64,000 bases of DNA. Source: an uncultured Acidimicrobiales bacterium (GTDB taxonomy: Bacteria; Actinomycetota; Acidimicrobiia; Acidimicrobiales; SZUA-35). Below, in pieces: positions 6,550 through 53,767 of this stretch. Both the position numbers and the translations under genes were made by a program. Each line of letters starts with the position of its first letter. Position 1 is the stretch's first letter. The notes below the pieces were generated by a model that made no database searches, had not been told where the DNA came from, and was given only the letters and a program-made list of their open reading frames with translations. Location of the stretch: assembly GCA_937997485.1 (NCBI GenBank), contig CALKTH010000016.1:3669-67668 (forward strand). The letters run 5' to 3'.

Positions 6550-8208
6550 TCACAGCAGCACCGCCTCTTCGCCTCGCAGGCGTTCGAGCACCGCAGCAAG
6601 ACACGCAACCGTGGCGCCAATCACCACGCTGAGCGCAAGCGCTTGACCTCGCAGCGCGGCACCCGGTTGGGAGAGCAAGCGGAAGATGGCCAGCGGCGCG
6701 GTAAACGCCGAGGGCGATCGCGAGAGGAATGCTGTGGCCCCGAACTCACCGAGGCTGATGGCGAACGCGAAACCGGAGCCCGTCACAACGGCTCGGCGAA
6801 TCAGCGGCCAATCGATGAGTCGGCTGATGCGGGACGGACGAGCGCCGAGCACTGCGGCGGCCTCGTGCAATCGATCGTCGATCGCACGCAGGGCAGGGAC
6901 CACCGAGGCAAGGACGAACGGCAGCCCGACGACGGCGTGGGCGACAGGAATCAGCCAGGGCGATCGCCGCAGGTCCAGCGCAGTGAATGCCAGCAGGTAC
7001 CCGAATCCGAGCGTGACGGCTGAGACGCCGAGAGGCACCAACGAGATCGCTTCAAGCACGCGCCCGGCTCGGCCGCCGCGGACCACGCCGTAGGCCGCAA
7101 TCACGCCGATGATGCTGGCCAACACCGCGGCGGCCAGGCCGAAGCGCAACGATCGCATCAGCGCCTCGGCGGCCGTCACGGGCAACAAGGGCAAGGGTTC
7201 AAGCAGCGCTCGATAGTGCGTGAGTCCGTACCCACCACCTGTGCGCAAGGACGACTCGATGAGCGCACCAATCGGCACACCGATCACCACACAAGCGAGA
7301 GCGATCACAACGGTGAGATGAGCTCGGCGACCCCACGTGTCGGGGCGCACCGTGCGACGCCGAGCCACGCCTCGTCCTGTATTCACGAACCGTCGCTGAA
7401 AACGGGCGGAGCCCACGGAGAGGAGCACGACGATCGCGAGCTGCACCATCGCCAAGACGGCGGCGACGTCGAATTCCTGGCGAAAGATGGCGTAGCGATG
7501 GATCTCGGTCTCGAGCGTGGCTCGGGCCGGGCCGCCGAGAATGAGGATCACACCGAAGCTCGTGAACGAGAAGAGGAAGACCAGCAGACCAGCGCCCAAC
7601 ACGATGGGAAGCAGAACAGGCAGAGCAACCAGGCGGAAGGCTCGGAAGGGCGTGGCCCCGAGCACCTGAGCGGCCTCGATGTCGCGCCGATCCAACGTCG
7701 CCCAGAAGCCGCCCACGATGCGCACCACAATCGCCACGTTGAAGAACACATGCGCCGCCAGGATCGCCGCGAGCGAACGGTCCAGATCGAGCGCCATCCG
7801 CGTGAACACTGCATCGAGTGCCGCCGCGACCACCACTGTGGGCAGCACGAACGGCACAACAACAAGCGCCCGCACCACTCCCCTGCCCTTGAAGTCGTAT
7901 CGAGCGAGCGCGTGAGCAATCGGCAATCCGACCAGCAGGGTGAGCAGCGCGGAGAGCAACGCCTGCGTGACCGTGAAGGTCAGGACCGAACGAGTTGAGC
8001 TACGAGTCAGGATCTCCAGAACTCGAGCGCCGTCGACGCCACGAAGACTTCGAGAGAAGACCGAGAGCAGGGGCCACACCACCAACGCGCCGAGGAACAG
8101 TGCGGGCACGAGCACGGTGACCACGCGAACCACCGACGAGACAGCGCGGGGCATCATCACGACCCGGCTCCGCACAGAAGCCCGTCGGGTGCGCTGGACA
8201 GCTGCCAC
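6550..8208 (-). CDS. ABC importer permease, fused two-domain type (ThiP/FbpB-like)
   Basis: 552 aa and polytopic, with two repeated MalFG-type halves, each carrying an EAA-like loop (IEAAQVLGATPFRAF; HEAAAVLGARPSRI). Start is uncertain. Confidence 0.88.
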   Translation of the reverse strand: MAAVQRTRRASVRSRVVMMPRAVSSVVRVVTVLVPALFLGALVVWPLLSVFSRSLRGVDGARVLEILTRSSTRSVLTFTVTQALLSALLTLLVGLPIAHALARYDFKGRGVVRALVVVPFVLPTVVVAAALDAVFTRMALDLDRSLAAILAAHVFFNVAIVVRIVGGFWATLDRRDIEAAQVLGATPFRAFRLVALPVLLPIVLGAGLLVFLFSFTSFGVILILGGPARATLETEIHRYAIFRQEFDVAAVLAMVQLAIVVLLSVGSARFQRRFVNTGRGVARRRTVRPDTWGRRAHLTVVIALACVVIGVPIGALIESSLRTGGGYGLTHYRALLEPLPLLPVTAAEALMRSLRFGLAAAVLASIIGVIAAYGVVRGGRAGRVLEAISLVPLGVSAVTLGFGYLLAFTALDLRRSPWLIPVAHAVVGLPFVLASVVPALRAIDDRLHEAAAVLGARPSRISRLIDWPLIRRAVVTGSGFAFAISLGEFGATAFLSRSPSAFTAPLAIFRLLSQPGAALRGQALALSVVIGATVACLAAVLERLRGEEAVLL

Positions 8209-8254
8209 CTCAGAGTCCGGTCAGAGCCGGACTCTGAGGTGGCAGAACGGTGAG

Positions 8255-16391: not shown

Positions 16392-16807
16392 GAGTGGGCT
16401 CCTGGAGCTTGGCTGGGTGCGGCGAGAGGGCTCCCAGCGTCGAATGGGTTCAGAGAGGTTCGCTGCAGCGGTGTCAGCTCGAGATGGTTCTCGAGGGCAG
16501 CAAGGATGAAGTCGACTTCATCAGCGCAGGTTGGGCCGCAGCTCGTGTGCAACGGGAGCGCGACGTCGGCTGCGTTCTGACGAAGGAGATGAGCAACGTC
16601 GCACGGGCTCGTTTCGAGCTTGAGATCGATGTTGCGCAAGTCGAACGCCGTCTCGGTGAGTCCGTAGACAGGAGGTGGCGTGGCGTTGAGCGGGCCGGCG
16701 CTGACGGCGCCGGAGGAGATCCGACGGCTCACCATCACGACGCCAACGATCGCCACGATGATCGCCAGCAACACGAAGAAGCCGAAGTACTCGGCGAGGA
16801 AGGTCAT
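16388..16807 (-). CDS. small N-terminally anchored membrane protein with Cys-containing ectodomain
   Basis: MTFLAEYFGFFVLLAIIVAIVGVVMV is followed by a soluble part with 3 Cys. ATGA overlaps at both ends (16807/16804 and 16391/16388). Confidence 0.6.
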   Translation of the reverse strand: MTFLAEYFGFFVLLAIIVAIVGVVMVSRRISSGAVSAGPLNATPPPVYGLTETAFDLRNIDLKLETSPCDVAHLLRQNAADVALPLHTSCGPTCADEVDFILAALENHLELTPLQRTSLNPFDAGSPLAAPSQAPGAHS

Positions 16808-18009
16808 GCCGGACTGGCCGAATCGTTGGCGGCGTGCGATGTCGCTCCACAGACGGTGTAGACGAGCGTTCGAAGATCGTTGACGGATCGTTGTCGTTCT
16901 GCGTCCTCTGCGATGTGACCACCGAAGCGAATGGCCACGTACCGCTCGAGAAGTGGGCGTAGGAGTTCCGCTCCTTGCGGGTCGAGCTGGCGGGCCCGAT
17001 CCAGCCACTCGTACGGCGTCTCCTCTGAATCACGAACGGGGAGCGTGCCGACACCGCCTTCGGTGTAAGCAAAGGCCAGACGGATGGCGTGCGTTGGGTC
17101 CGGATCGGCTCGGAGATCGTTGAGATACGCCTCGAAGGCCGCCCATGGGTCCGCCGACTCGTAGCGTCGAATCGCAGGGGTTGCCGCCACCGCACCGATC
17201 CCGGCCGGAGCCGCTTCCGGTGCCATCGCGATGAAGAACCACACACCGAGGCCGAGGGCGAGGAGTGCAGCGAGAGCGATCAGAATCACGCTCCAGTTCA
17301 CGGTCGATCCGCCGTCGCCTCCTCCGTCCAGTCCGTTTGGTCCGTCTCTCGGATTCGCGGGAAGCGCCTCGAGATCGAGGGGCGGAAGGTCGCTCGGACC
17401 AACGAAGAGCTCTTCGTCGAGTTGAATCGTGCCATCGGGGTTCTGTCCGAGTGGGACTGGACCAGCGTCGGAGGACATGTCTCGGGCGACGAGTTCACCG
17501 TTCTCGTTCTCGACGCTCACCCTGGTTCCATCGGGACGCACCACGTCGAAACCGCCGCTGGTGTTGGGCCGGATGATCGTGGCCCCCTCGGTGTCGTCAC
17601 CGACTCGAACCGGGCTGAACGTGCCGTCTGGGTTGACTCGGAAACCGACGATGTCTCCGTCCGGGTCCTCGATGAAACGCATGACCTGCGCTTGGCCAAG
17701 GGCGTCTTCTCCGACCACGCGTTCGCCGTCGGTCGTGATCTCGACCGGGCCGTCAGGGGTGTCGATGATGATGCGTGAGGCGTCGAAGGGGACATCGTCG
17801 CCGGTCAGACGTTCAATCGCTTGGTCGTCGGCTCTTCGATCGATGAAGACCTGACGCTCCTCCGCGTTGAGGGCAATCGCTGCGACGAGCACGACAAGAA
17901 GTGCGTAGGGCAGGGCAAGCCACCGCACCCACGGGGCAGGTCCGGAGCGAGGGGCGACTGGCGGTCGGTCATCCATGATCGGAGTCACCCCTTCATCATC
18001 GCCCGACAA
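16804..18009 (-). CDS. DUF4129-type membrane protein with PDG-repeat ectodomain
   Basis: Architecture is TM, then repeated (D/N)PDG(T/D) beta-like motifs, a second TM, and a C-terminal ...AFEAYLNDL...YTEGG...ETPYEW... region resembling DUF4129. It is the first gene of the MoxR operon. Confidence 0.65.
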   Translation of the reverse strand: MSGDDEGVTPIMDDRPPVAPRSGPAPWVRWLALPYALLVVLVAAIALNAEERQVFIDRRADDQAIERLTGDDVPFDASRIIIDTPDGPVEITTDGERVVGEDALGQAQVMRFIEDPDGDIVGFRVNPDGTFSPVRVGDDTEGATIIRPNTSGGFDVVRPDGTRVSVENENGELVARDMSSDAGPVPLGQNPDGTIQLDEELFVGPSDLPPLDLEALPANPRDGPNGLDGGGDGGSTVNWSVILIALAALLALGLGVWFFIAMAPEAAPAGIGAVAATPAIRRYESADPWAAFEAYLNDLRADPDPTHAIRLAFAYTEGGVGTLPVRDSEETPYEWLDRARQLDPQGAELLRPLLERYVAIRFGGHIAEDAERQRSVNDLRTLVYTVCGATSHAANDSASPA

Positions 18010-18069
18010 TCACCCATCCTGTAGCCACCAGCTCAGAACGCGCCTCACACCACCCTTCCCCCTTCGCCT

Positions 18070-18108
18070 CTGGTGAGCATCTGGTGCCAGACACTCATCA
18101 CCTACCAG
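18070..18108. repeat. REP element copy A
   Basis: CTGGTGAGCATCTGGTGCCAGACACTCATCACCTACCAG. Confidence 0.75.
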
Positions 18109-18128
18109 ATGCCAGCTACCCGATCACA

Positions 18129-18167
18129 CTGGTGAGTGTTTGGTGTCAGACACCCACCACCTACCAG
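18129..18167. repeat. REP element copy B (overlaps RAYT stop codon)
   Basis: CTGGTGAGTGTTTGGTGTCAGACACCCACCACCTACCAG. Confidence 0.8.
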
Positions 18168-19117
18168 ATGACCCCGTACTGCTCCGACGCCGAGCGTCGA
18201 AGCACCTCGATCTCGGCGCCGGTGGCGATTCCGTTGGCTGCCCGCCGGATAGCGTTGTCGACTGCGCCTGGGCCGATACCGAACACTTCCCCCGTCGCCG
18301 TCAGCGTCAACCGAGAGAGCACCCGCACGGCCCAAATGGCAAGATCTCGCTCAGGACGCGACCGACGAGTCTCCACCCTCATCAGCACTTCAGGCTCGAC
18401 GTTGAGCCACCCGCAGACGAACGCCAGAACATCATGCGGGTCGGGGTACTCCCCCGCTGGTAGCTCGAGCCGCAGGCCCTTCGTCGCGACACCGGCATGC
18501 GTCAACGACTCCTCCACCTCAGGCAAGAACCTGGTGTCACCCAGCAAGGTCGCGGAACTCTCGACAGCCCTACGAGTGCGCTCATCCACGCCCTGTTCCG
18601 TGAACTCCCGCAGGGCGCTTCGGTCGCCGCCGAACTGACCGAGGACGAACGACGGATCGAGGAACGGAGGCATCTCCGCCAGTCCCATCAGCGGGGCGTA
18701 GGACGAGTACTCGTAGCGCTCGGGGAGATCGACCATGCCGGCTTCAGGCGGGTTGAGATGGATGTACCGAGGGAGCGCGAGCGAATACGGGCCAGTCTGG
18801 ACAAGGCGGTTCTTGAAGCGGGACTCGAACAACGGCCCGCGTCGGCCGTCCATCCAGTTATGACGACGGACGAATCGTGAGCCGAGCATCTGCATCGCTT
18901 CGGAAACGCGGCCCTCCCGGGACAAGACGAACAGATGGAAGTGATTCGTCATCAAGCAGTAGGCGTAGATCGAGATGCCAAACCGGTCGAGGTCGCCGAG
19001 GAGGCGCATGAACCAGATGAAGTCAGCCCGGCTGCCGAACATCAGCAGGTGGGCAATAGCACGGTTGTAGAGGTGGTGGTGCGCCCCCGGATAGTCAGGT
19101 CGAAGCTCTCTAGCCAT
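18161..19117 (-). CDS. REP-associated tyrosine transposase (RAYT, IS200/Y1 fold) fused to a DnaA-domain-IV-like HTH
   Basis: HUH motif in CLMTNHFHLFV and a catalytic Tyr context LPRYIHLNP. The C-terminal RDLAIWAVRVLSRLTLTATGEVFGIGPGAVDNAIRRA resembles the DnaA C-terminal DNA-binding domain. The upstream region is AT-rich. Confidence 0.88.
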   Translation of the reverse strand: MARELRPDYPGAHHHLYNRAIAHLLMFGSRADFIWFMRLLGDLDRFGISIYAYCLMTNHFHLFVLSREGRVSEAMQMLGSRFVRRHNWMDGRRGPLFESRFKNRLVQTGPYSLALPRYIHLNPPEAGMVDLPERYEYSSYAPLMGLAEMPPFLDPSFVLGQFGGDRSALREFTEQGVDERTRRAVESSATLLGDTRFLPEVEESLTHAGVATKGLRLELPAGEYPDPHDVLAFVCGWLNVEPEVLMRVETRRSRPERDLAIWAVRVLSRLTLTATGEVFGIGPGAVDNAIRRAANGIATGAEIEVLRRSASEQYGVIW

Positions 19118-19218
19118 TCCAACAATGTACCTGACCTACGCTTAATTACTTTTCTTTACGTTTATCGCTGCCGCGACTCTTCCTGACTGACGCCAGACGC
19201 TCACCAGCAGCGAACCAA

Positions 19219-19257
19219 CTGGTAGGTGATGGGTGTCTGACACCAGATTCCATCCAG
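19219..19257. repeat. REP element copy C (inverted relative to A/B, 3' half degenerate)
   Basis: CTGGTAGGTGATGGGTGTCTGACACCAGATTCCATCCAG. A further degenerate half-copy lies at about 19187..19207. Confidence 0.7.
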
Positions 19258-19280
19258 GCCATCCGACTGCCACCGTCCAG

Positions 19281-19319
19281 CTGGTGAGTGATGGGTGTCT
19301 GACACCCATCACTCACCAG
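19281..19319. repeat. REP element copy D (perfect 39-nt palindrome)
   Basis: CTGGTGAGTGATGGGTGTCTGACACCCATCACTCACCAG is its own reverse complement around the central T. Confidence 0.9.
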
Positions 19320-19365
19320 AGGGAGAGGGGAGACCGCGGCGGCGGTGGCGGGGGGCTGGCGGCAA

Positions 19366-19403
19366 CTGGTAGGTAGTGGGGGTCAGACACCAGATTCCTC
19401 CAG
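19366..19403. repeat. REP element copy E
   Basis: CTGGTAGGTAGTGGGGGTCAGACACCAGATTCCTCCAG. Confidence 0.75.
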
Positions 19404-19459
19404 AGGCGTGGGCGAAATGGGCACGTGATCCCCGAGGTGGGCGCGTAGCCTGTGCGGCC

Positions 19460-22069
19460 ATGAGCAACGCCCCGGAGAAGCCCTCGCTAGAGGGTCTCGA
19501 GCAGAAGTGGTCCGCCCAATGGCAGACCGCTGACACGTACGCCTTCGACCGCTCGAAGGACCGTGCCGGGGTATTCAGCATCGACACGCCGCCGCCCACC
19601 GTCAGCGGCTCGCTCCACATGGGGCACATCTTCAGTTACACCCACACCGACACGATTGCCCGCTACCAGCGGATGACCGGCAAGTCCGTCTTTTACCCGA
19701 TGGGTTGGGACGACAACGGCCTGCCCACCGAGCGCCGCGTTCAGAACTACTTCGGTGTCCGCTGCGACCCCTCGCTCCCCTACGAAGAGGGCTTCGAGCC
19801 GCCCGCTCGCGAGTCGCTCGGTCCCGACGGCAAGGCCTACAAGGGCCAGGTTCCCGTCAGCCGTCCCAACTTCATCGAGCTGTGCGATGAGCTCGTCGCT
19901 ATTGACGAGAAGGTCTTCGAAGATCTCTGGCGCACGCTCGGCCTCAGCGTTGACTGGTCGCTCCTCTACGCCACGATCGACGAGCGCTCACGCCGCACTA
20001 GCCAGCGCGCCTTCCTACGCAACCTGGCCCGAGGCGAGGCGTACCAGCAGGAAGCGCCGAGCCTGTGGGACGTCACGTTCCAGACAGCCGTTGCCCAGGC
20101 CGAGCTGGAAGATCGTGAACGGCCGAGCGCCTATCACACGCTTCGTTTCACGCTGCCCAACGGCGACGACCTCCTGATCGACACCACCCGGCCCGAGCTC
20201 CTGCCAGCCTGCGTCGCTGTTGTCGCCCACCCTTCGGACGAGCGCTACACACCGTTTGAGGGTCAGACCATCACGACGCCCGTCTTCGGTGTCGAGGTCC
20301 CCATGGTCTTCCATGAGCTGGCGGATCCCGAGAAGGGCACCGGGGTCGCCATGATCTGTACCTTCGGCGACACCACCGACGTCACCTGGTGGCGTGAGCT
20401 CAACCTTCCCGCCCGCGCCGTCATCGGCCGCAACGGCCGGTTCATCGACGAGGCGCCCGAGGTCATGTCGGCTGAGGCCGCCGAGCGCTACGGCCGCATG
20501 GTTGGCAAAACCGTTCACTCGGGCAAGGAAGAGGTCGTCGCCATGCTGCGCGAGACCGACACGCTCATCGGTGAACCGCGCCCCATCACCCACCCGGTCA
20601 AGTTCTTCGAAAAGGGCGACAAGCCGCTCGAGATCGTCACCAGTCGCCAGTGGTACATCCGCAACGGCGGTCGTGAGAAGGAACTCGGCCAAGAGCTCAT
20701 CGCTCGCGGCGGTGAGATGCAGTGGCATCCGCCCTACATGCAAAGCCGCTACACGAACTGGGTCGACGGGCTGAACGGCGACTGGCTCATCAGCCGCCAG
20801 CGCTTCTTCGGCGTTCCGATCCCGCTCTGGTACGCGCTCGACGCCAACGGCGAGCCGCTCTACGGCTCCCCCATCTCGCCCGACGAGTCGCTCCTCCCGA
20901 TCGATCCTTCCACCGACGTTCCCGCCGGCTTCACCGCCGAGCAGCGGGGCGAGCCCGGTGGCTTCATGGGCGATCCCGACATCATGGACACCTGGGCCAC
21001 TTCATCGCTCACCCCGCAGATCGCGGCCCGCTGGGAAGACGACACCCCTGAAGGCGCAGGCCTGTTCGAACGGGTCTACCCGTTCGACATGCGGCCTCAG
21101 GGTCACGACATCATCCGAACCTGGCTCTTCTCCACCGCCGTCCGCTCTCACTTCGAGCACGACGCGGCCCCGTGGAAGAACGCCTGCCTCTCGGGATGGA
21201 TCCTGGATCCCGACCGCAAGAAGATGTCCAAGTCGAAGGGCAACGTTGTCACCCCGATCGATCTGCTCGAGCAGTTCGGTTCCGACGCCGTTCGCTACTG
21301 GGCCGCCTCCGGTCGTCCGGGGACCGACACAGCATTCGACGAAGGCCAGATGAAGGTCGGCCGCCGCTTGGCGATCAAGCTGCTCAACGCGTCCAAGTTC
21401 GCTCTCGGCATGGGCGATCTCGTTGCCGCTCTCGATGCGCCGGTCACCGAGCCTCTCGACCAAGCCATGCTCGCCCGCCTCGGCGACCTCGTCGACGAGT
21501 GCACAAAGGCGTTCAACGACTTCGACTACGCCCGAGCCCTGGAGCGCACCGAGTCGTTCTTCTGGAACTTCACCGACGACTACATCGAGCTGGTCAAGAA
21601 CCGGGCCTACGCCTCTCGGGGCGACGAGGCCGCAGCCTCCGCACACGCCGCGCTGGCCCGGGCTCTCGACACGCTCCTCCGCCTGCTCGCTCCCTTCCTG
21701 CCCTTCGCCACCGAAGAGGTCTGGGACTGGTGGCGGGCCGAAAGCGCCGGCGGCTCGGTTCACACCTCCAGCTGGCCGACCTCGGCTCCACTTCGTGAGG
21801 CTGCGGCGGGCACCGACCCAGCGCTTCTCGCTGTTGCCGGGCAGACCCTGAGCGAGCTGCGACGGGCCAAGAGCGAGGCGAAGCGCAAGCTGCGCACCGC
21901 CATCACTTCCGGCACCATCACCGACGTCACCGAGCGCATCGCCCAGCTCCGGCTCGTCATCGACGATGTTGCCGAAGCCGGTGTCGCCACGGGCCTCTCG
22001 TTGACCGAAGGCGAAGCACTCGCAGTCCAGGTCGAACTCGAACCAGAGCCCGCAGCCGACGAGGCGTAA
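19460..22069 (+). CDS. valS: valine--tRNA ligase (actinobacterial/archaeal-like about 870-aa type)
   Basis: PPPTVSGSLHMGHIFSYT (HIGH-type), KMSKSKGN, a CP1 editing region and a C-terminal coiled coil. Start set to MSNAPEKPSLEG because the ORF-track start at 19376 lies inside REP copy E. Confidence 0.93.
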   Translation: MSNAPEKPSLEGLEQKWSAQWQTADTYAFDRSKDRAGVFSIDTPPPTVSGSLHMGHIFSYTHTDTIARYQRMTGKSVFYPMGWDDNGLPTERRVQNYFGVRCDPSLPYEEGFEPPARESLGPDGKAYKGQVPVSRPNFIELCDELVAIDEKVFEDLWRTLGLSVDWSLLYATIDERSRRTSQRAFLRNLARGEAYQQEAPSLWDVTFQTAVAQAELEDRERPSAYHTLRFTLPNGDDLLIDTTRPELLPACVAVVAHPSDERYTPFEGQTITTPVFGVEVPMVFHELADPEKGTGVAMICTFGDTTDVTWWRELNLPARAVIGRNGRFIDEAPEVMSAEAAERYGRMVGKTVHSGKEEVVAMLRETDTLIGEPRPITHPVKFFEKGDKPLEIVTSRQWYIRNGGREKELGQELIARGGEMQWHPPYMQSRYTNWVDGLNGDWLISRQRFFGVPIPLWYALDANGEPLYGSPISPDESLLPIDPSTDVPAGFTAEQRGEPGGFMGDPDIMDTWATSSLTPQIAARWEDDTPEGAGLFERVYPFDMRPQGHDIIRTWLFSTAVRSHFEHDAAPWKNACLSGWILDPDRKKMSKSKGNVVTPIDLLEQFGSDAVRYWAASGRPGTDTAFDEGQMKVGRRLAIKLLNASKFALGMGDLVAALDAPVTEPLDQAMLARLGDLVDECTKAFNDFDYARALERTESFFWNFTDDYIELVKNRAYASRGDEAAASAHAALARALDTLLRLLAPFLPFATEEVWDWWRAESAGGSVHTSSWPTSAPLREAAAGTDPALLAVAGQTLSELRRAKSEAKRKLRTAITSGTITDVTERIAQLRLVIDDVAEAGVATGLSLTEGEALAVQVELEPEPAADEA

Positions 22070-37435: not shown

Positions 37436-37544
37436 CTGGGTGCCTGACCCCCACCATCACCTGTGGGTGCCTGACCCCCACCATCACTGAGACCCTCACC
37501 TGCACCTGTGGGTGCCTGACCCCCACCATCACTGAGACCCTCAG
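37436..37544. repeat. three tandem REP-family copies (same family as at the RAYT locus)
   Basis: TGGGTGCCTGACCCCCACCATCAC occurs three times (starting at about 37438, 37464 and 37508). The last two copies sit in a 44-nt repeat unit CCTGTGGGTGCCTGACCCCCACCATCACTGAGACCCTCA. The reverse complement resembles copy E (GGTAGTGGGGGTCAGACACC). The array lies between convergent genes and overlaps the ogt stop. Confidence 0.8.
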
Positions 37545-52959: not shown

Positions 52960-53706
52960 ATGGCAGACGTGTCACTCGAGCTCGCCGCGCAGGATCTCGA
53001 ACCGCTCGTCCAACGACGACGGGTGCTGCTGATCGGCGAGCCTCCGGGCACCGAGGAGTTTCCGGCACTCGTGCTCGAGCTCGCTCGCCAGGGTCTGGCA
53101 TCCGGGCACGAAGTGATCGTGGGACTCGAAGTGCCCATGACCGAAGAGGTGGAGCGAGGTCCGGTTGGACCGTTCTGGCAACGAGCCGCCGAGTTTCAGG
53201 ACGGTCGCTCGAGCCGGGCGATGGCGAGTCTGGTCGAGGAACTGGCACTGATGCGCCGCAACGGCGACAAGGTCGAGACGGTTGCCATGGATGGTCCGTG
53301 GGTCGCGCCTGGATCAACACTGCCCTTGGAACACATGGGCCTGCTGGAGACGCCGCGAGATGAACTCATGGCCACGAATCTCCTCGCCGTGATGGATCGG
53401 ACACCGAGGGCCTTCACCATCGTGATGGCAGGCGCAATGCACACCACCCTGCACGCTGAAGCCTGGCGCACTCTCGGATCGATTCTCGGTCCCTGGTTCC
53501 CCACGTTGACGGCTCTGTACGGCCAGCTGACCGGCGGCACTCGCTGGCTCCTCCCGGCCGACGCCAGCGAAGGGGCCGTGTTCGACGTACCCCACCTCGA
53601 ACTCCCGGCCGGCGCGCTGTGGGCGGACGAGGTCGGTGCCGACGGCCACCACGGCTACCTCAACATCGGCCACGTCACCGCCTCGCCCCCACACGCCTCC
53701 GCCTGA
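52960..53706 (+). CDS. hypothetical protein (possible ChaN/TraB/erythromycin-esterase-like fold)
   Basis: VLLIGEPPGTEEFP...VIVGLEVP and a later IVMAGAMHT loosely resemble the GE.HG / GxxH motifs of that superfamily. Weak. Confidence 0.45.
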   Translation: MADVSLELAAQDLEPLVQRRRVLLIGEPPGTEEFPALVLELARQGLASGHEVIVGLEVPMTEEVERGPVGPFWQRAAEFQDGRSSRAMASLVEELALMRRNGDKVETVAMDGPWVAPGSTLPLEHMGLLETPRDELMATNLLAVMDRTPRAFTIVMAGAMHTTLHAEAWRTLGSILGPWFPTLTALYGQLTGGTRWLLPADASEGAVFDVPHLELPAGALWADEVGADGHHGYLNIGHVTASPPHASA

Positions 53707-53723
53707 CCACCATCTCCTCCCTG

Positions 53724-53767
53724 GTGGCACCGTTACTTGTCGCTCTGACGACACATAACGGTGCCAC
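53724..53767. repeat. 44-nt hairpin repeat, family 2, copy 1
   Basis: GTGGCACCGTTA-CTTGTCGCTCTGACGACACA-TAACGGTGCCAC. The outer arms are 12 bp and perfect, and there is an inner TGTCG/CGACA pairing. Confidence 0.85.

Follow-up and report, generated by a model that had tools for sequence, protein, structure and literature searches.

Tyrosine transposases of TnpA_Y1 subclass 2.1 are defined by an NHVH or NH[YF]H motif, a YIELNP or Y[IV]HLNP motif, an SS motif, and a distal helix-turn-helix (HTH) resembling Bac_DnaA_C, HTH_23, or HTH_28 (PMC6006769). Quentin, Siguier, Chandler, and Fichant (2018) equated this subclass with TIRYT genes and their TIRtrons, and with Group 1 of the RAYTs, the tyrosine transposases associated with repetitive extragenic palindromes (REPs) (PMC6006769). 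TIRYT genes (Di Nocera, De Gregorio, and Rocco, 2013) lie between inverted repeats that share a GGGGWSAS core; a subset of these repeats make up moderately abundant families that occur as dimers or clusters (PMC3733652). Bertels et al. (2017) regarded Group 1 as the RAYT group most like insertion sequences (ISs) (PMC5581495). No RAYT-like group is larger than subclass 2.1 (Group 1), which is described but has no known biochemically characterized member, and published surveys disagree as to whether it is tied to dispersed repeats. In high-GC Actinobacteridae, Quentin et al. found IS200-type (subclass 1.1) genes only (PMC6006769). Here, we analyze a 64,000-nt stretch of DNA from an uncultured Acidimicrobiales bacterium (the window), in which a transposase gene, RAYT1, and the flanking 39-nt repeats, REP1, form a cassette that matches the subclass 2.1 arrangement.

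The window corresponds to C16:3669-67668 of a 4.86 Mb assembly in 158 contigs (G000; C-numbers denote its contigs). RAYT1 (18161..19117, minus strand) is an intact, single-copy gene for a 318-aa Y1/HUH tyrosine transposase that matches the TIRYT type. The catalytic domain, including the SS motif, spans residues 1 to ~145 (18683..19117, minus strand). We identified the HuH motif as NHFH at residues 58-61, which fits NH[YF]H, and the tyrosine motif as YIHLNP at residues 118-123, which fits Y[IV]HLNP. A previous interpretation made without database searches (the sequence-only reading) had already noted HUH (HFH) and YIHLNP motifs in a 318-aa product. In a 41-sequence family alignment, H59, H61, Y118, N122, and S138 were invariant, and S139 was conserved in at least 90% of the sequences (SS motif, proximal tail). 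From these motifs, H59 and H61 would hold the metal, and Y118 is the predicted nucleophile.

RAYT1 scored 18 bits against Pfam Y1_Tnp, under the gathering cut-off, and 42.6 bits (E = 5.3e-11) against the NCBIfam equivalog NF047646 (REP_Tyr_transpos), which has a cut-off of 80 bits; Y1_Tnp was matched by 41 of the 41 aligned family members. An exhaustive search returned 8,400 RAYT1 relatives at E<=1e-10, many of them ~320 aa long and matching over the full length, with the nearest only 41% identical. The AlphaFold model of RAYT1 (pLDDT 92, pTM 0.75) found its best Foldseek match in the Protein Data Bank (PDB) with 4er8, the E. coli TnpA_REP in complex with a REP hairpin (E = 8.6e-6, TMt 0.74), and the TnpAs of IS608, ISDra2, and IS200 ranked behind it. 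The family profile likewise matched 4er8 at E = 5e-5 over positions 11-142, and the IS TnpAs at E values of at least 0.17.

RAYT1 is bracketed by REP1 copies in inverted orientation, two minus-strand copies lying downstream and three plus-strand copies upstream. On the 3' side, the outer copy (18070..18108, minus strand; nhmmer E = 1.9e-10) delimits the inserted cassette on the left, and the inner copy (18129..18167, minus strand; E = 1e-12), with its head toward the gene, extends into RAYT1, covering its TAG stop and the two codons before it (18161-18167). On the 5' side, the inner copy (19219..19257, plus strand; E = 3e-11) also turns its head toward the gene. It is followed by a perfect 39-nt palindrome (19281..19319, plus strand; 19+1+19), the sole perfect one among 45 full-length copies, and by a copy truncated to 34/39 nt (19366..19399, plus strand; E = 1.7e-7), which carries the exact family core GGGGTCAG and marks the right cassette edge. 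Additionally, a degenerate half-copy of the tail half, detected through inverted-repeat pairs, lies at about 19189..19207 (plus strand), with 16/19 matches in a hand alignment by eye. The core GGTGTCWGACACC occurs four times in the window, against 0.07 expected.

This arrangement agrees with the sequence-only reading, which had listed two 3' copies (at 18070 and 18129, the second with the stop codon) and three 5' copies plus a degenerate half-copy (at 19219, 19281, and 19366), the last of which we find to be truncated. Its word "palindrome" strictly fits only the gene-adjacent copy at 19281, which folds as single-stranded DNA at -21.2 kcal/mol (z = -8.1); the consensus REP1 forms only a weak hairpin. 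Between the repeats and the RAYT1 start codon lies an AT-rich leader (19118..19185, minus strand; 44% GC), the presumed RAYT1 promoter region, and RAYT2, the paralog described below, also has such an AT-rich stretch. A promoter and terminator scan of window positions 17900-19550 returned no sites, and the sigma-70 consensus was absent. The further claim that the REPs occupy the promoter and leader of valS therefore stays positional: the repeats do stand 61-241 nt ahead of the valS ATG, where the scan found no promoter.

The cassette is extra DNA in a conserved intergenic region. Three close relatives (L093, L095, and L096; ValS 85-86% identical) share the gene order DUF58, MoxR, small open reading frame (ORF), DUF4129-like gene, and divergent valS. 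In the window, the conserved left-hand neighbor is the DUF4129-like gene of the MoxR/DUF58 cluster (16804..18009, minus strand), which is syntenic in all three, and the right-hand neighbor is valS (19460..22069, plus strand; 869 aa), with which the orthologs align from the ATG. These orthologs place the true valS start at ATG 19460; the mechanical ORF start, GTG 19376, falls inside a REP1 copy. The interval before valS is 84-108 nt in the three relatives versus 1,450 nt here, and homology to them stops at the start of the left-hand neighbor (TTG, 18009) and resumes ~14 nt before the valS ATG (at ~19446-19457). The ancestral short divergent intergenic region survives as a left remnant (18010..18069) and a right remnant (19404..19459), the latter being the only native DNA left upstream of valS. 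Since deletion of 18070-19403 in silico leaves ~116 nt, the coordinates that the sequence-only reading had delimited coincide with the limits of a discrete inserted unit.

The gene itself is sparsely distributed. We detected no close RAYT1 ortholog in the relatives, and a homolog of any kind in only 5/31 of them, with a best identity of 39%. Class-wide, 15/301 genomes contained a match, and only RAYT1 and RAYT2 matched the profile end to end. The GC and GC3 (GC content at third codon positions) of the RAYT1 cassette are host-like. The assembly as a whole has 64% GC, and the named ValS orthologs are from Acidimicrobiales, Acidimicrobiia, or Actinomycetota, which bears out the proposal of a GC-rich, Actinomycetota-like genome.

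We located REP1 across the genome contigs with an nhmmer profile and found a 39-nt imperfect palindrome in about 53 copies, at ~28 loci on many contigs, laid out as singlets, direct doublets, and small clusters. Coding DNA was masked with a GC3 heuristic rather than a gene caller, which covered 75% of the genome. Outside this mask lay 47 of the 53 copies, and most of the six masked ones were at over-extended ORF starts. A 20-nt REP1 pattern gave 61 strand-hits in the genome, and the reversed control gave 0. Among 30 related genomes (6 congeners and 24 further relatives), the pattern returned only 0-2 two-mismatch chance matches each. The genome-wide count that the sequence-only reading had proposed therefore yields a dispersed, extragenic family.

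Positions 1-26 of REP1 form a head (CTGGTRRGTRATGGGTGTCWGACACC) that, together with the terminal ACCAG, is nearly fixed, and positions 27-34 form a variable tail (tail positions 58%). In a typical copy, 12-15 of 19 pairs are Watson-Crick pairs, and the combination of a fixed head with a variable tail accounts for its weak single-stranded fold. Position 6 is A in 28/45 copies, so that at most ~28 read GTAG at positions 4-7, inside the stem foot rather than 5' of it. Mean identity is 82%, and 40 of the 45 full-length copies are distinct. An adjacent inverted pair occurs in five REP1 clusters; direct doublets and singlets predominate, which is not the REPIN layout. At two solitary REP1 sites, synteny is kept in the compared genomes, with a length excess of 150-200 nt. 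The congeners are ~70-77% identical and their intergenic DNA is unalignable, so these sites show a length excess only. Searches of the repeats against Rfam gave only sub-threshold chance matches to miRNAs.

Several repeat copies stand at contig ends of the assembly (C153, C109, C24, and C98). An independent Logan contig with the gene (ERR9287623, 1,107 nt) extends beyond the RAYT1 ORF by 130 nt on the upstream side and 20 nt on the downstream side and ends at the flanking repeats, as expected if the repeats break short-read assemblies. We also observed a multi-hairpin repeat of ~200 nt at C74:14130-14330, C79:25552-25752, C64:50436-50635, C60:220-417, C12:48369-48471, and C5:27283-27473. At three loci it directly abuts the REP1 subtype ending in ...CCAGATTTCCACCAG, which suggests a composite element; this companion had no match in Rfam.

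The genome contains exactly two Y1 transposase genes. The second, RAYT2 (C80:23621-24589, 322 aa), is 39% identical to RAYT1 over the full length and is bracketed in the same inverted way by a different family, REP2 (GTGATGGTGGGGGTCAGGCACCCACAG). REP2 has 71-73 copies at 93% identity, 24 of them identical to the copies beside RAYT2; 62/71 copies lie outside the coding mask, and almost all are direct doublets. Of all 16-mers in the genome, one from REP2 ranks first in frequency (68 occurrences), and the family is absent from all 30 relatives. REP1 and REP2 have GTGATGG...G(G/T)GTC(A/T)G(A/G)CACC in common, indicating that the families are related, as the two enzymes are. With its 24 identical copies, the sister system looks recent, and REP1 looks old.

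REP2 also reaches into the window, as a three-copy cluster at 37437..37535 (minus strand). Elsewhere, the two families are interleaved or adjacent at C43:40779-40966 (R2- R2- R1+ R2- R1+, where R1 and R2 are REP1 and REP2), C27:1826-1898, and C43:33100-33182, mixed sites that form mosaics of two families like bacterial interspersed mosaic elements. At C46:97360-98914, an IS110-family transposase (DEDD_Tnp_IS110 + Transposase_20) is located inside a REP2 cluster. IS110/IS1111 elements tend to insert into REP sequences, and the C46 case fits this tendency.

With NHFH, YIHLNP, SS, a distal DnaA_C-like HTH, and inverted-repeat flanks, RAYT1 has the features by which subclass 2.1 is recognized. Its motifs, architecture, and flanks match TnpA_Y1 subclass 2.1/TIRYT/RAYT Group 1, rather than the classical E. 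coli-type RAYT. At about half of 80 homolog loci, inverted repeats with GGGGTCAG(G/A)(T/C)C flank the gene, typically ~45-100 nt upstream of the start. These loci come from Desulfobacterota, Nitrospirota, Omnitrophota, Gammaproteobacteria, Acidobacteriota, Acidimicrobiales, and others. Because the core is shared by homolog flanks across phyla, the link between enzyme and repeat is a family-wide property and not a coincidence of this locus. REP2 (GGGGTCAG) and the REP1 copy at 19366 fit the GGGGWSAS core, and the REP1 consensus, GGTGTCWG, is one mismatch off.

The C-terminal third of RAYT1 carries a DnaA domain IV-like HTH (residues ~224-314; 18176..18448, minus strand). Submitted alone, RAYT1 had no Pfam match in this HTH; Bac_DnaA_C was matched by 30 of the 41 aligned family members (best E = 3e-13). 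In hhalign, the family profile aligned with domain IV of the DnaA from the same genome (96.5% probability, E = 8e-10, 95 columns), and against DnaA chains in the PDB it gave E values of 1e-10 to 7e-13. The C-terminal domain of RAYT1 superimposed on 3pvp, the M. tuberculosis DnaA DNA-binding domain with its box, with a TMt of 0.76 and a root-mean-square deviation of 2.6 A over 89 columns. The resemblance to DnaA domain IV noted in the sequence-only reading is thus a true homology, by profile as well as by fold. It extends over the entire DNA-binding domain (PF08299; 1j1v, 3pvp; ~95 aligned columns) and includes the conserved Arg that opens the 'ARQxAMY' helix. Unlike DnaA, RAYT1 has neither the AAA+ region nor the RDHTTV signature. 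This base-reading signature is replaced with GPGAVD in RAYT1 and SPTGVS in RAYT2, and the RAYT1 domain should therefore not read DnaA boxes. The only likeness of the repeats to a DnaA box was a CCACA in REP2, noticed by eye, and no conclusion here depends on it. The DnaA_C fusion is not special to RAYT1, being the standard architecture of a large published subclass.

We consider it likely that RAYT1 and REP1 constitute a TIRtron/REPtron, in which a single-copy chromosomal Y1 transposase of subclass 2.1 is accompanied by short non-autonomous repeats that the enzyme most probably makes and maintains. The idea of a RAYT with its cognate REPs adjacent, which the sequence-only reading had advanced, is supported by the dispersal of the repeat, the paralog with its own family, and the empty site in the relatives. 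That reading had also set out the opposite case, a repeat found only here beside a protein like the IS200/IS605 TnpA, and neither half of it agrees with the data: the repeat is dispersed, and RAYT1 differs from IS200/IS605 TnpA in being single-copy, in having 4er8 as its nearest structure, and in having inverted flanking repeats.

If RAYT1 works as E. coli TnpA_REP and IS608 TnpA do, it would bind its repeat where the DNA is single-stranded, as at a replication fork. The HUH histidines would hold a metal ion, and Tyr118 would cut and rejoin at the repeat boundary. In this way, repeats would be copied or moved one at a time, in direct doublets, or in inverted '- then +' pairs; spreading beside existing repeats could produce the direct doublets and the mixed REP1/REP2 clusters. 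The DnaA-like HTH, which the sequence-only reading regarded as a possible means of REP recognition, probably binds the duplex head/core GGKGTCWG and not DnaA boxes. Such binding would keep the enzyme attached to the ends of its own unit, shut down its presumed promoter in the AT-rich 19118-19185 segment, or both.

Several observations weigh against this scheme. The REP1 consensus folds weakly as single-stranded DNA (-6.8 kcal/mol, z = -1.2), so that hairpin recognition is not assured, and the family is diverged enough that it may no longer be mobile. The REP1 flanks showed no conserved target or cleavage motif, and the HTH of RAYT1 does not keep the base-contact residues of DnaA. Moreover, Quentin et al. 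saw no REPs beside the genes of subclass 2.1 and expressed doubt about recognition of the terminal inverted repeats by the HTH (PMC6006769).

The repeats might instead belong to the host, as protein-binding sites, RNA stabilizers, terminators, or other structural or regulatory sequences, with the transposase gene having landed in, or targeting, pre-existing clusters. REP1 and REP2 lie together at C43:40779-40966, C27:1826, and C43:33100 as if clusters attract insertions, the IS110-family transposase sits inside a REP2 cluster, and other palindrome families exist in the genome without a dedicated enzyme. Each of the two paralogs nevertheless has its own repeat family, and only that one, on both sides in the same inverted polarity, and the orientation of the repeats is independent of transcription. 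The absence of both families from the six congeners and the 24 further relatives also argues against a host function. Furthermore, the REP1 and REP2 cores are variants of the one present in the inverted repeats around homologs from unrelated phyla, indicating that repeat and enzyme travel together. We therefore regard host-derived repeats as an improbable explanation.

The divergence of REP1 (82% identity; tail positions 58%) and the poor folding of most of its copies might also be attributable to decay, RAYT1 being a relic or a domesticated protein that is inactive on the repeats, for instance an HTH transcription factor only, and REP1 a fossil family. The catalytic residues and the full fold are intact in RAYT1, REP pairs are found at lineage-specific rearrangements (see below), and the sister family REP2 retains 24 identical copies, all of which make a relic quite unlikely. 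Finally, an ordinary autonomous IS of the IS200/IS605 kind, with the flanking repeats as its ends and the dispersed copies as solo ends or miniature inverted-repeat transposable elements, would agree with the insertion of the whole cassette relative to close relatives, with the IS-like standing of Group 1 (PMC5581495), and with a patchy gene distribution that suggests horizontal transfer (5/31 relatives, 15/301 class genomes), but is very unlikely given the absence of tnpB, ends that are inverted and multiple rather than the direct subterminal hairpins of IS200/IS605, repeats that outnumber the gene ~50-70 to 1, a Y1_Tnp score below the gathering cut-off with host-like GC/GC3, and two genes present once each at only 39% identity, which implies no recent self-copying.

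A strict rule in the order of the repeats bears on how the proposed transposase-repeat system might act. Wherever orientation switches within a repeat family, it does so as '- then +' (11/11), never the reverse, so that the conserved heads face inward, as they do around RAYT1 and RAYT2. Setting aside the two switches around the genes as those that define the polarity leaves nine, for which p is ~0.002. Transcription-coupled orientation was considered as the cause of this polarity and rejected, the same and opposite orientations being represented by 15 and 12 REP2 copies and by 5 and 14 REP1 copies, respectively, the REP1 copies being non-independent.

For repeats at REARRANGEMENTS, we observed REP pairs bordering insertions and inversions the size of a gene, as well as breaks in synteny. 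On C33, two minus-strand REP2 copies, an APH-family phosphotransferase gene, and two plus-strand REP2 copies occupy 1,265 nt, compared with 206-249 nt and no such gene in 6/6 congeners; the excess equals the REP-bounded 1,037 nt, indicating a clean insertion of the APH cassette. On C29, inverted REP2 copies enclose a creatininase gene that, compared with the 4/4 congeners in which the locus is kept, is inverted relative to both flanks. On C54, inverted REP1 copies enclose a NUDIX gene joined to two foreign flanks, and these parts lie at three separate places in 6/6 congeners. The RAYT2 cassette, for its part, sits at an inversion breakpoint. Altogether, 5/5 of the examined '-[gene]+' units differ structurally from congeners or close relatives, with repeats at or beside the breakpoints. 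As for the contents of the other '-[X]+' units, decayed RAYT genes were sought by tblastn and rejected: nothing was detected, and the genes inside are NUDIX, creatininase, APH, and IS110 genes.

Inverted REP pairs may represent the ends of gene-sized cassettes that the transposase inserts, inverts, or relocates in trans, an idea to which, with such small numbers, we give only a low probability. In that case, host genes, and not only 39-nt repeats, would be shuffled, and the DnaA-like HTH may pair the duplex ends. If true, this would show how domesticated transposases reshape gene order.

The genome holds further extragenic repeats. A third family, a perfect palindrome of ~45 nt (GTGGCACCGTTACTTGTCGC-CAGAG-CGACAAGTAACGGTGCCAC), occurs at 53700-53760 in the window (half-site 53724) and at ~20 other loci; its half-site 16-mer has 42 occurrences, and the genome has no Y1 gene dedicated to it. 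A fourth palindrome family (CTGCCACCTCAGAGTCCGG-N6-CCGGACTCTGAGGTGGCAG) is present at 8205-8242 in the window and at ~13 other loci, with 26 half-site matches. The region upstream of valS in L095 and L096 contains a palindrome, AACTGCCA...TGGCAGTT, that resembles the ends of this fourth family. In addition, a repeat of ~100 nt around GCCCACCGGAACGGTGGGCTGGGCACGAAATTTCGGC has 25 copies (C5:55682, C5:78838, C9:159554, and ~20 more loci), none of them in the window.

These findings extend class-2 Y1 transposases with repeat families into Actinomycetota. The genome offers an unusually clean natural experiment: a pair of diverged enzymes, a pair of repeat families that are related yet distinct (one old-looking, one young-looking), a defined empty site, and a DnaA-like domain whose role could be probed by deletion and by a swap between the two paralogs.

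Among the known systems, the classical REPtron (E. coli TnpA_REP, 4er8; Nunvar 2010, Ton-Hoang 2012, Messing 2012) shares its catalytic fold with RAYT1, for which it is the closest solved structure, and likewise consists of a single-copy gene bracketed by inverted copies of a dispersed extragenic repeat. E. coli TnpA_REP is, however, ~165 aa long and lacks the HTH, whereas RAYT1 has 318 aa and the HTH and falls under the NCBIfam equivalog cut-off. E. coli REPs, present in hundreds of copies, fold into stable hairpins preceded by a 5' GTAG, compared with the weak hairpin and ~53 copies of REP1, a modest count beside the hundreds of repeats in both E. coli and Pseudomonas. The REPIN-RAYT systems of Pseudomonas (Bertels and Rainey 2011) resemble the present case in having one transposase for one repeat family, several such pairs per genome, and recurring inverted pairs. 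They differ in that REPINs are mostly inverted doublets with a long vertical inheritance, while direct doublets and singlets dominate here, congeners lack orthologs of the two genes, and the enzyme comes from another RAYT group.

The closest likeness is to the TIRYT/subclass 2.1/Group 1 class, which agrees in protein length, motifs, the Bac_DnaA_C-like HTH, inverted flanking repeats (with a GGGGWSAS-type core in REP2 and in one REP1 copy), low gene copy number, and patchy taxonomic distribution. The class also includes genomes in which two or more such genes are each paired with a separate, moderately abundant repeat family in dimers or clusters, S. maltophilia K279a being the published case. 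In contrast to the 'REP: no' entry for subclass 2.1 in Quentin et al., the flanking repeat here is a full 39-nt REP-like imperfect palindrome, and the REP2 16-mer count of 68 is at the level of the classical REP-associated Group 2, compared with a mean of 12 for Group 1 (PMC5581495). The present repeats also differ from those of the TIRYT class in following a polarity rule and in their association with gene-sized rearrangements, and the host is an Acidimicrobiales actinobacterium. The gene-plus-repeat arrangement was already described in 2013, and the present case is a very clean example of it in an unexpected lineage. What is new is the Acidimicrobiales host, the two cognate enzyme/repeat pairs in one genome, the polarity rule, and the REP pairs at rearrangements.

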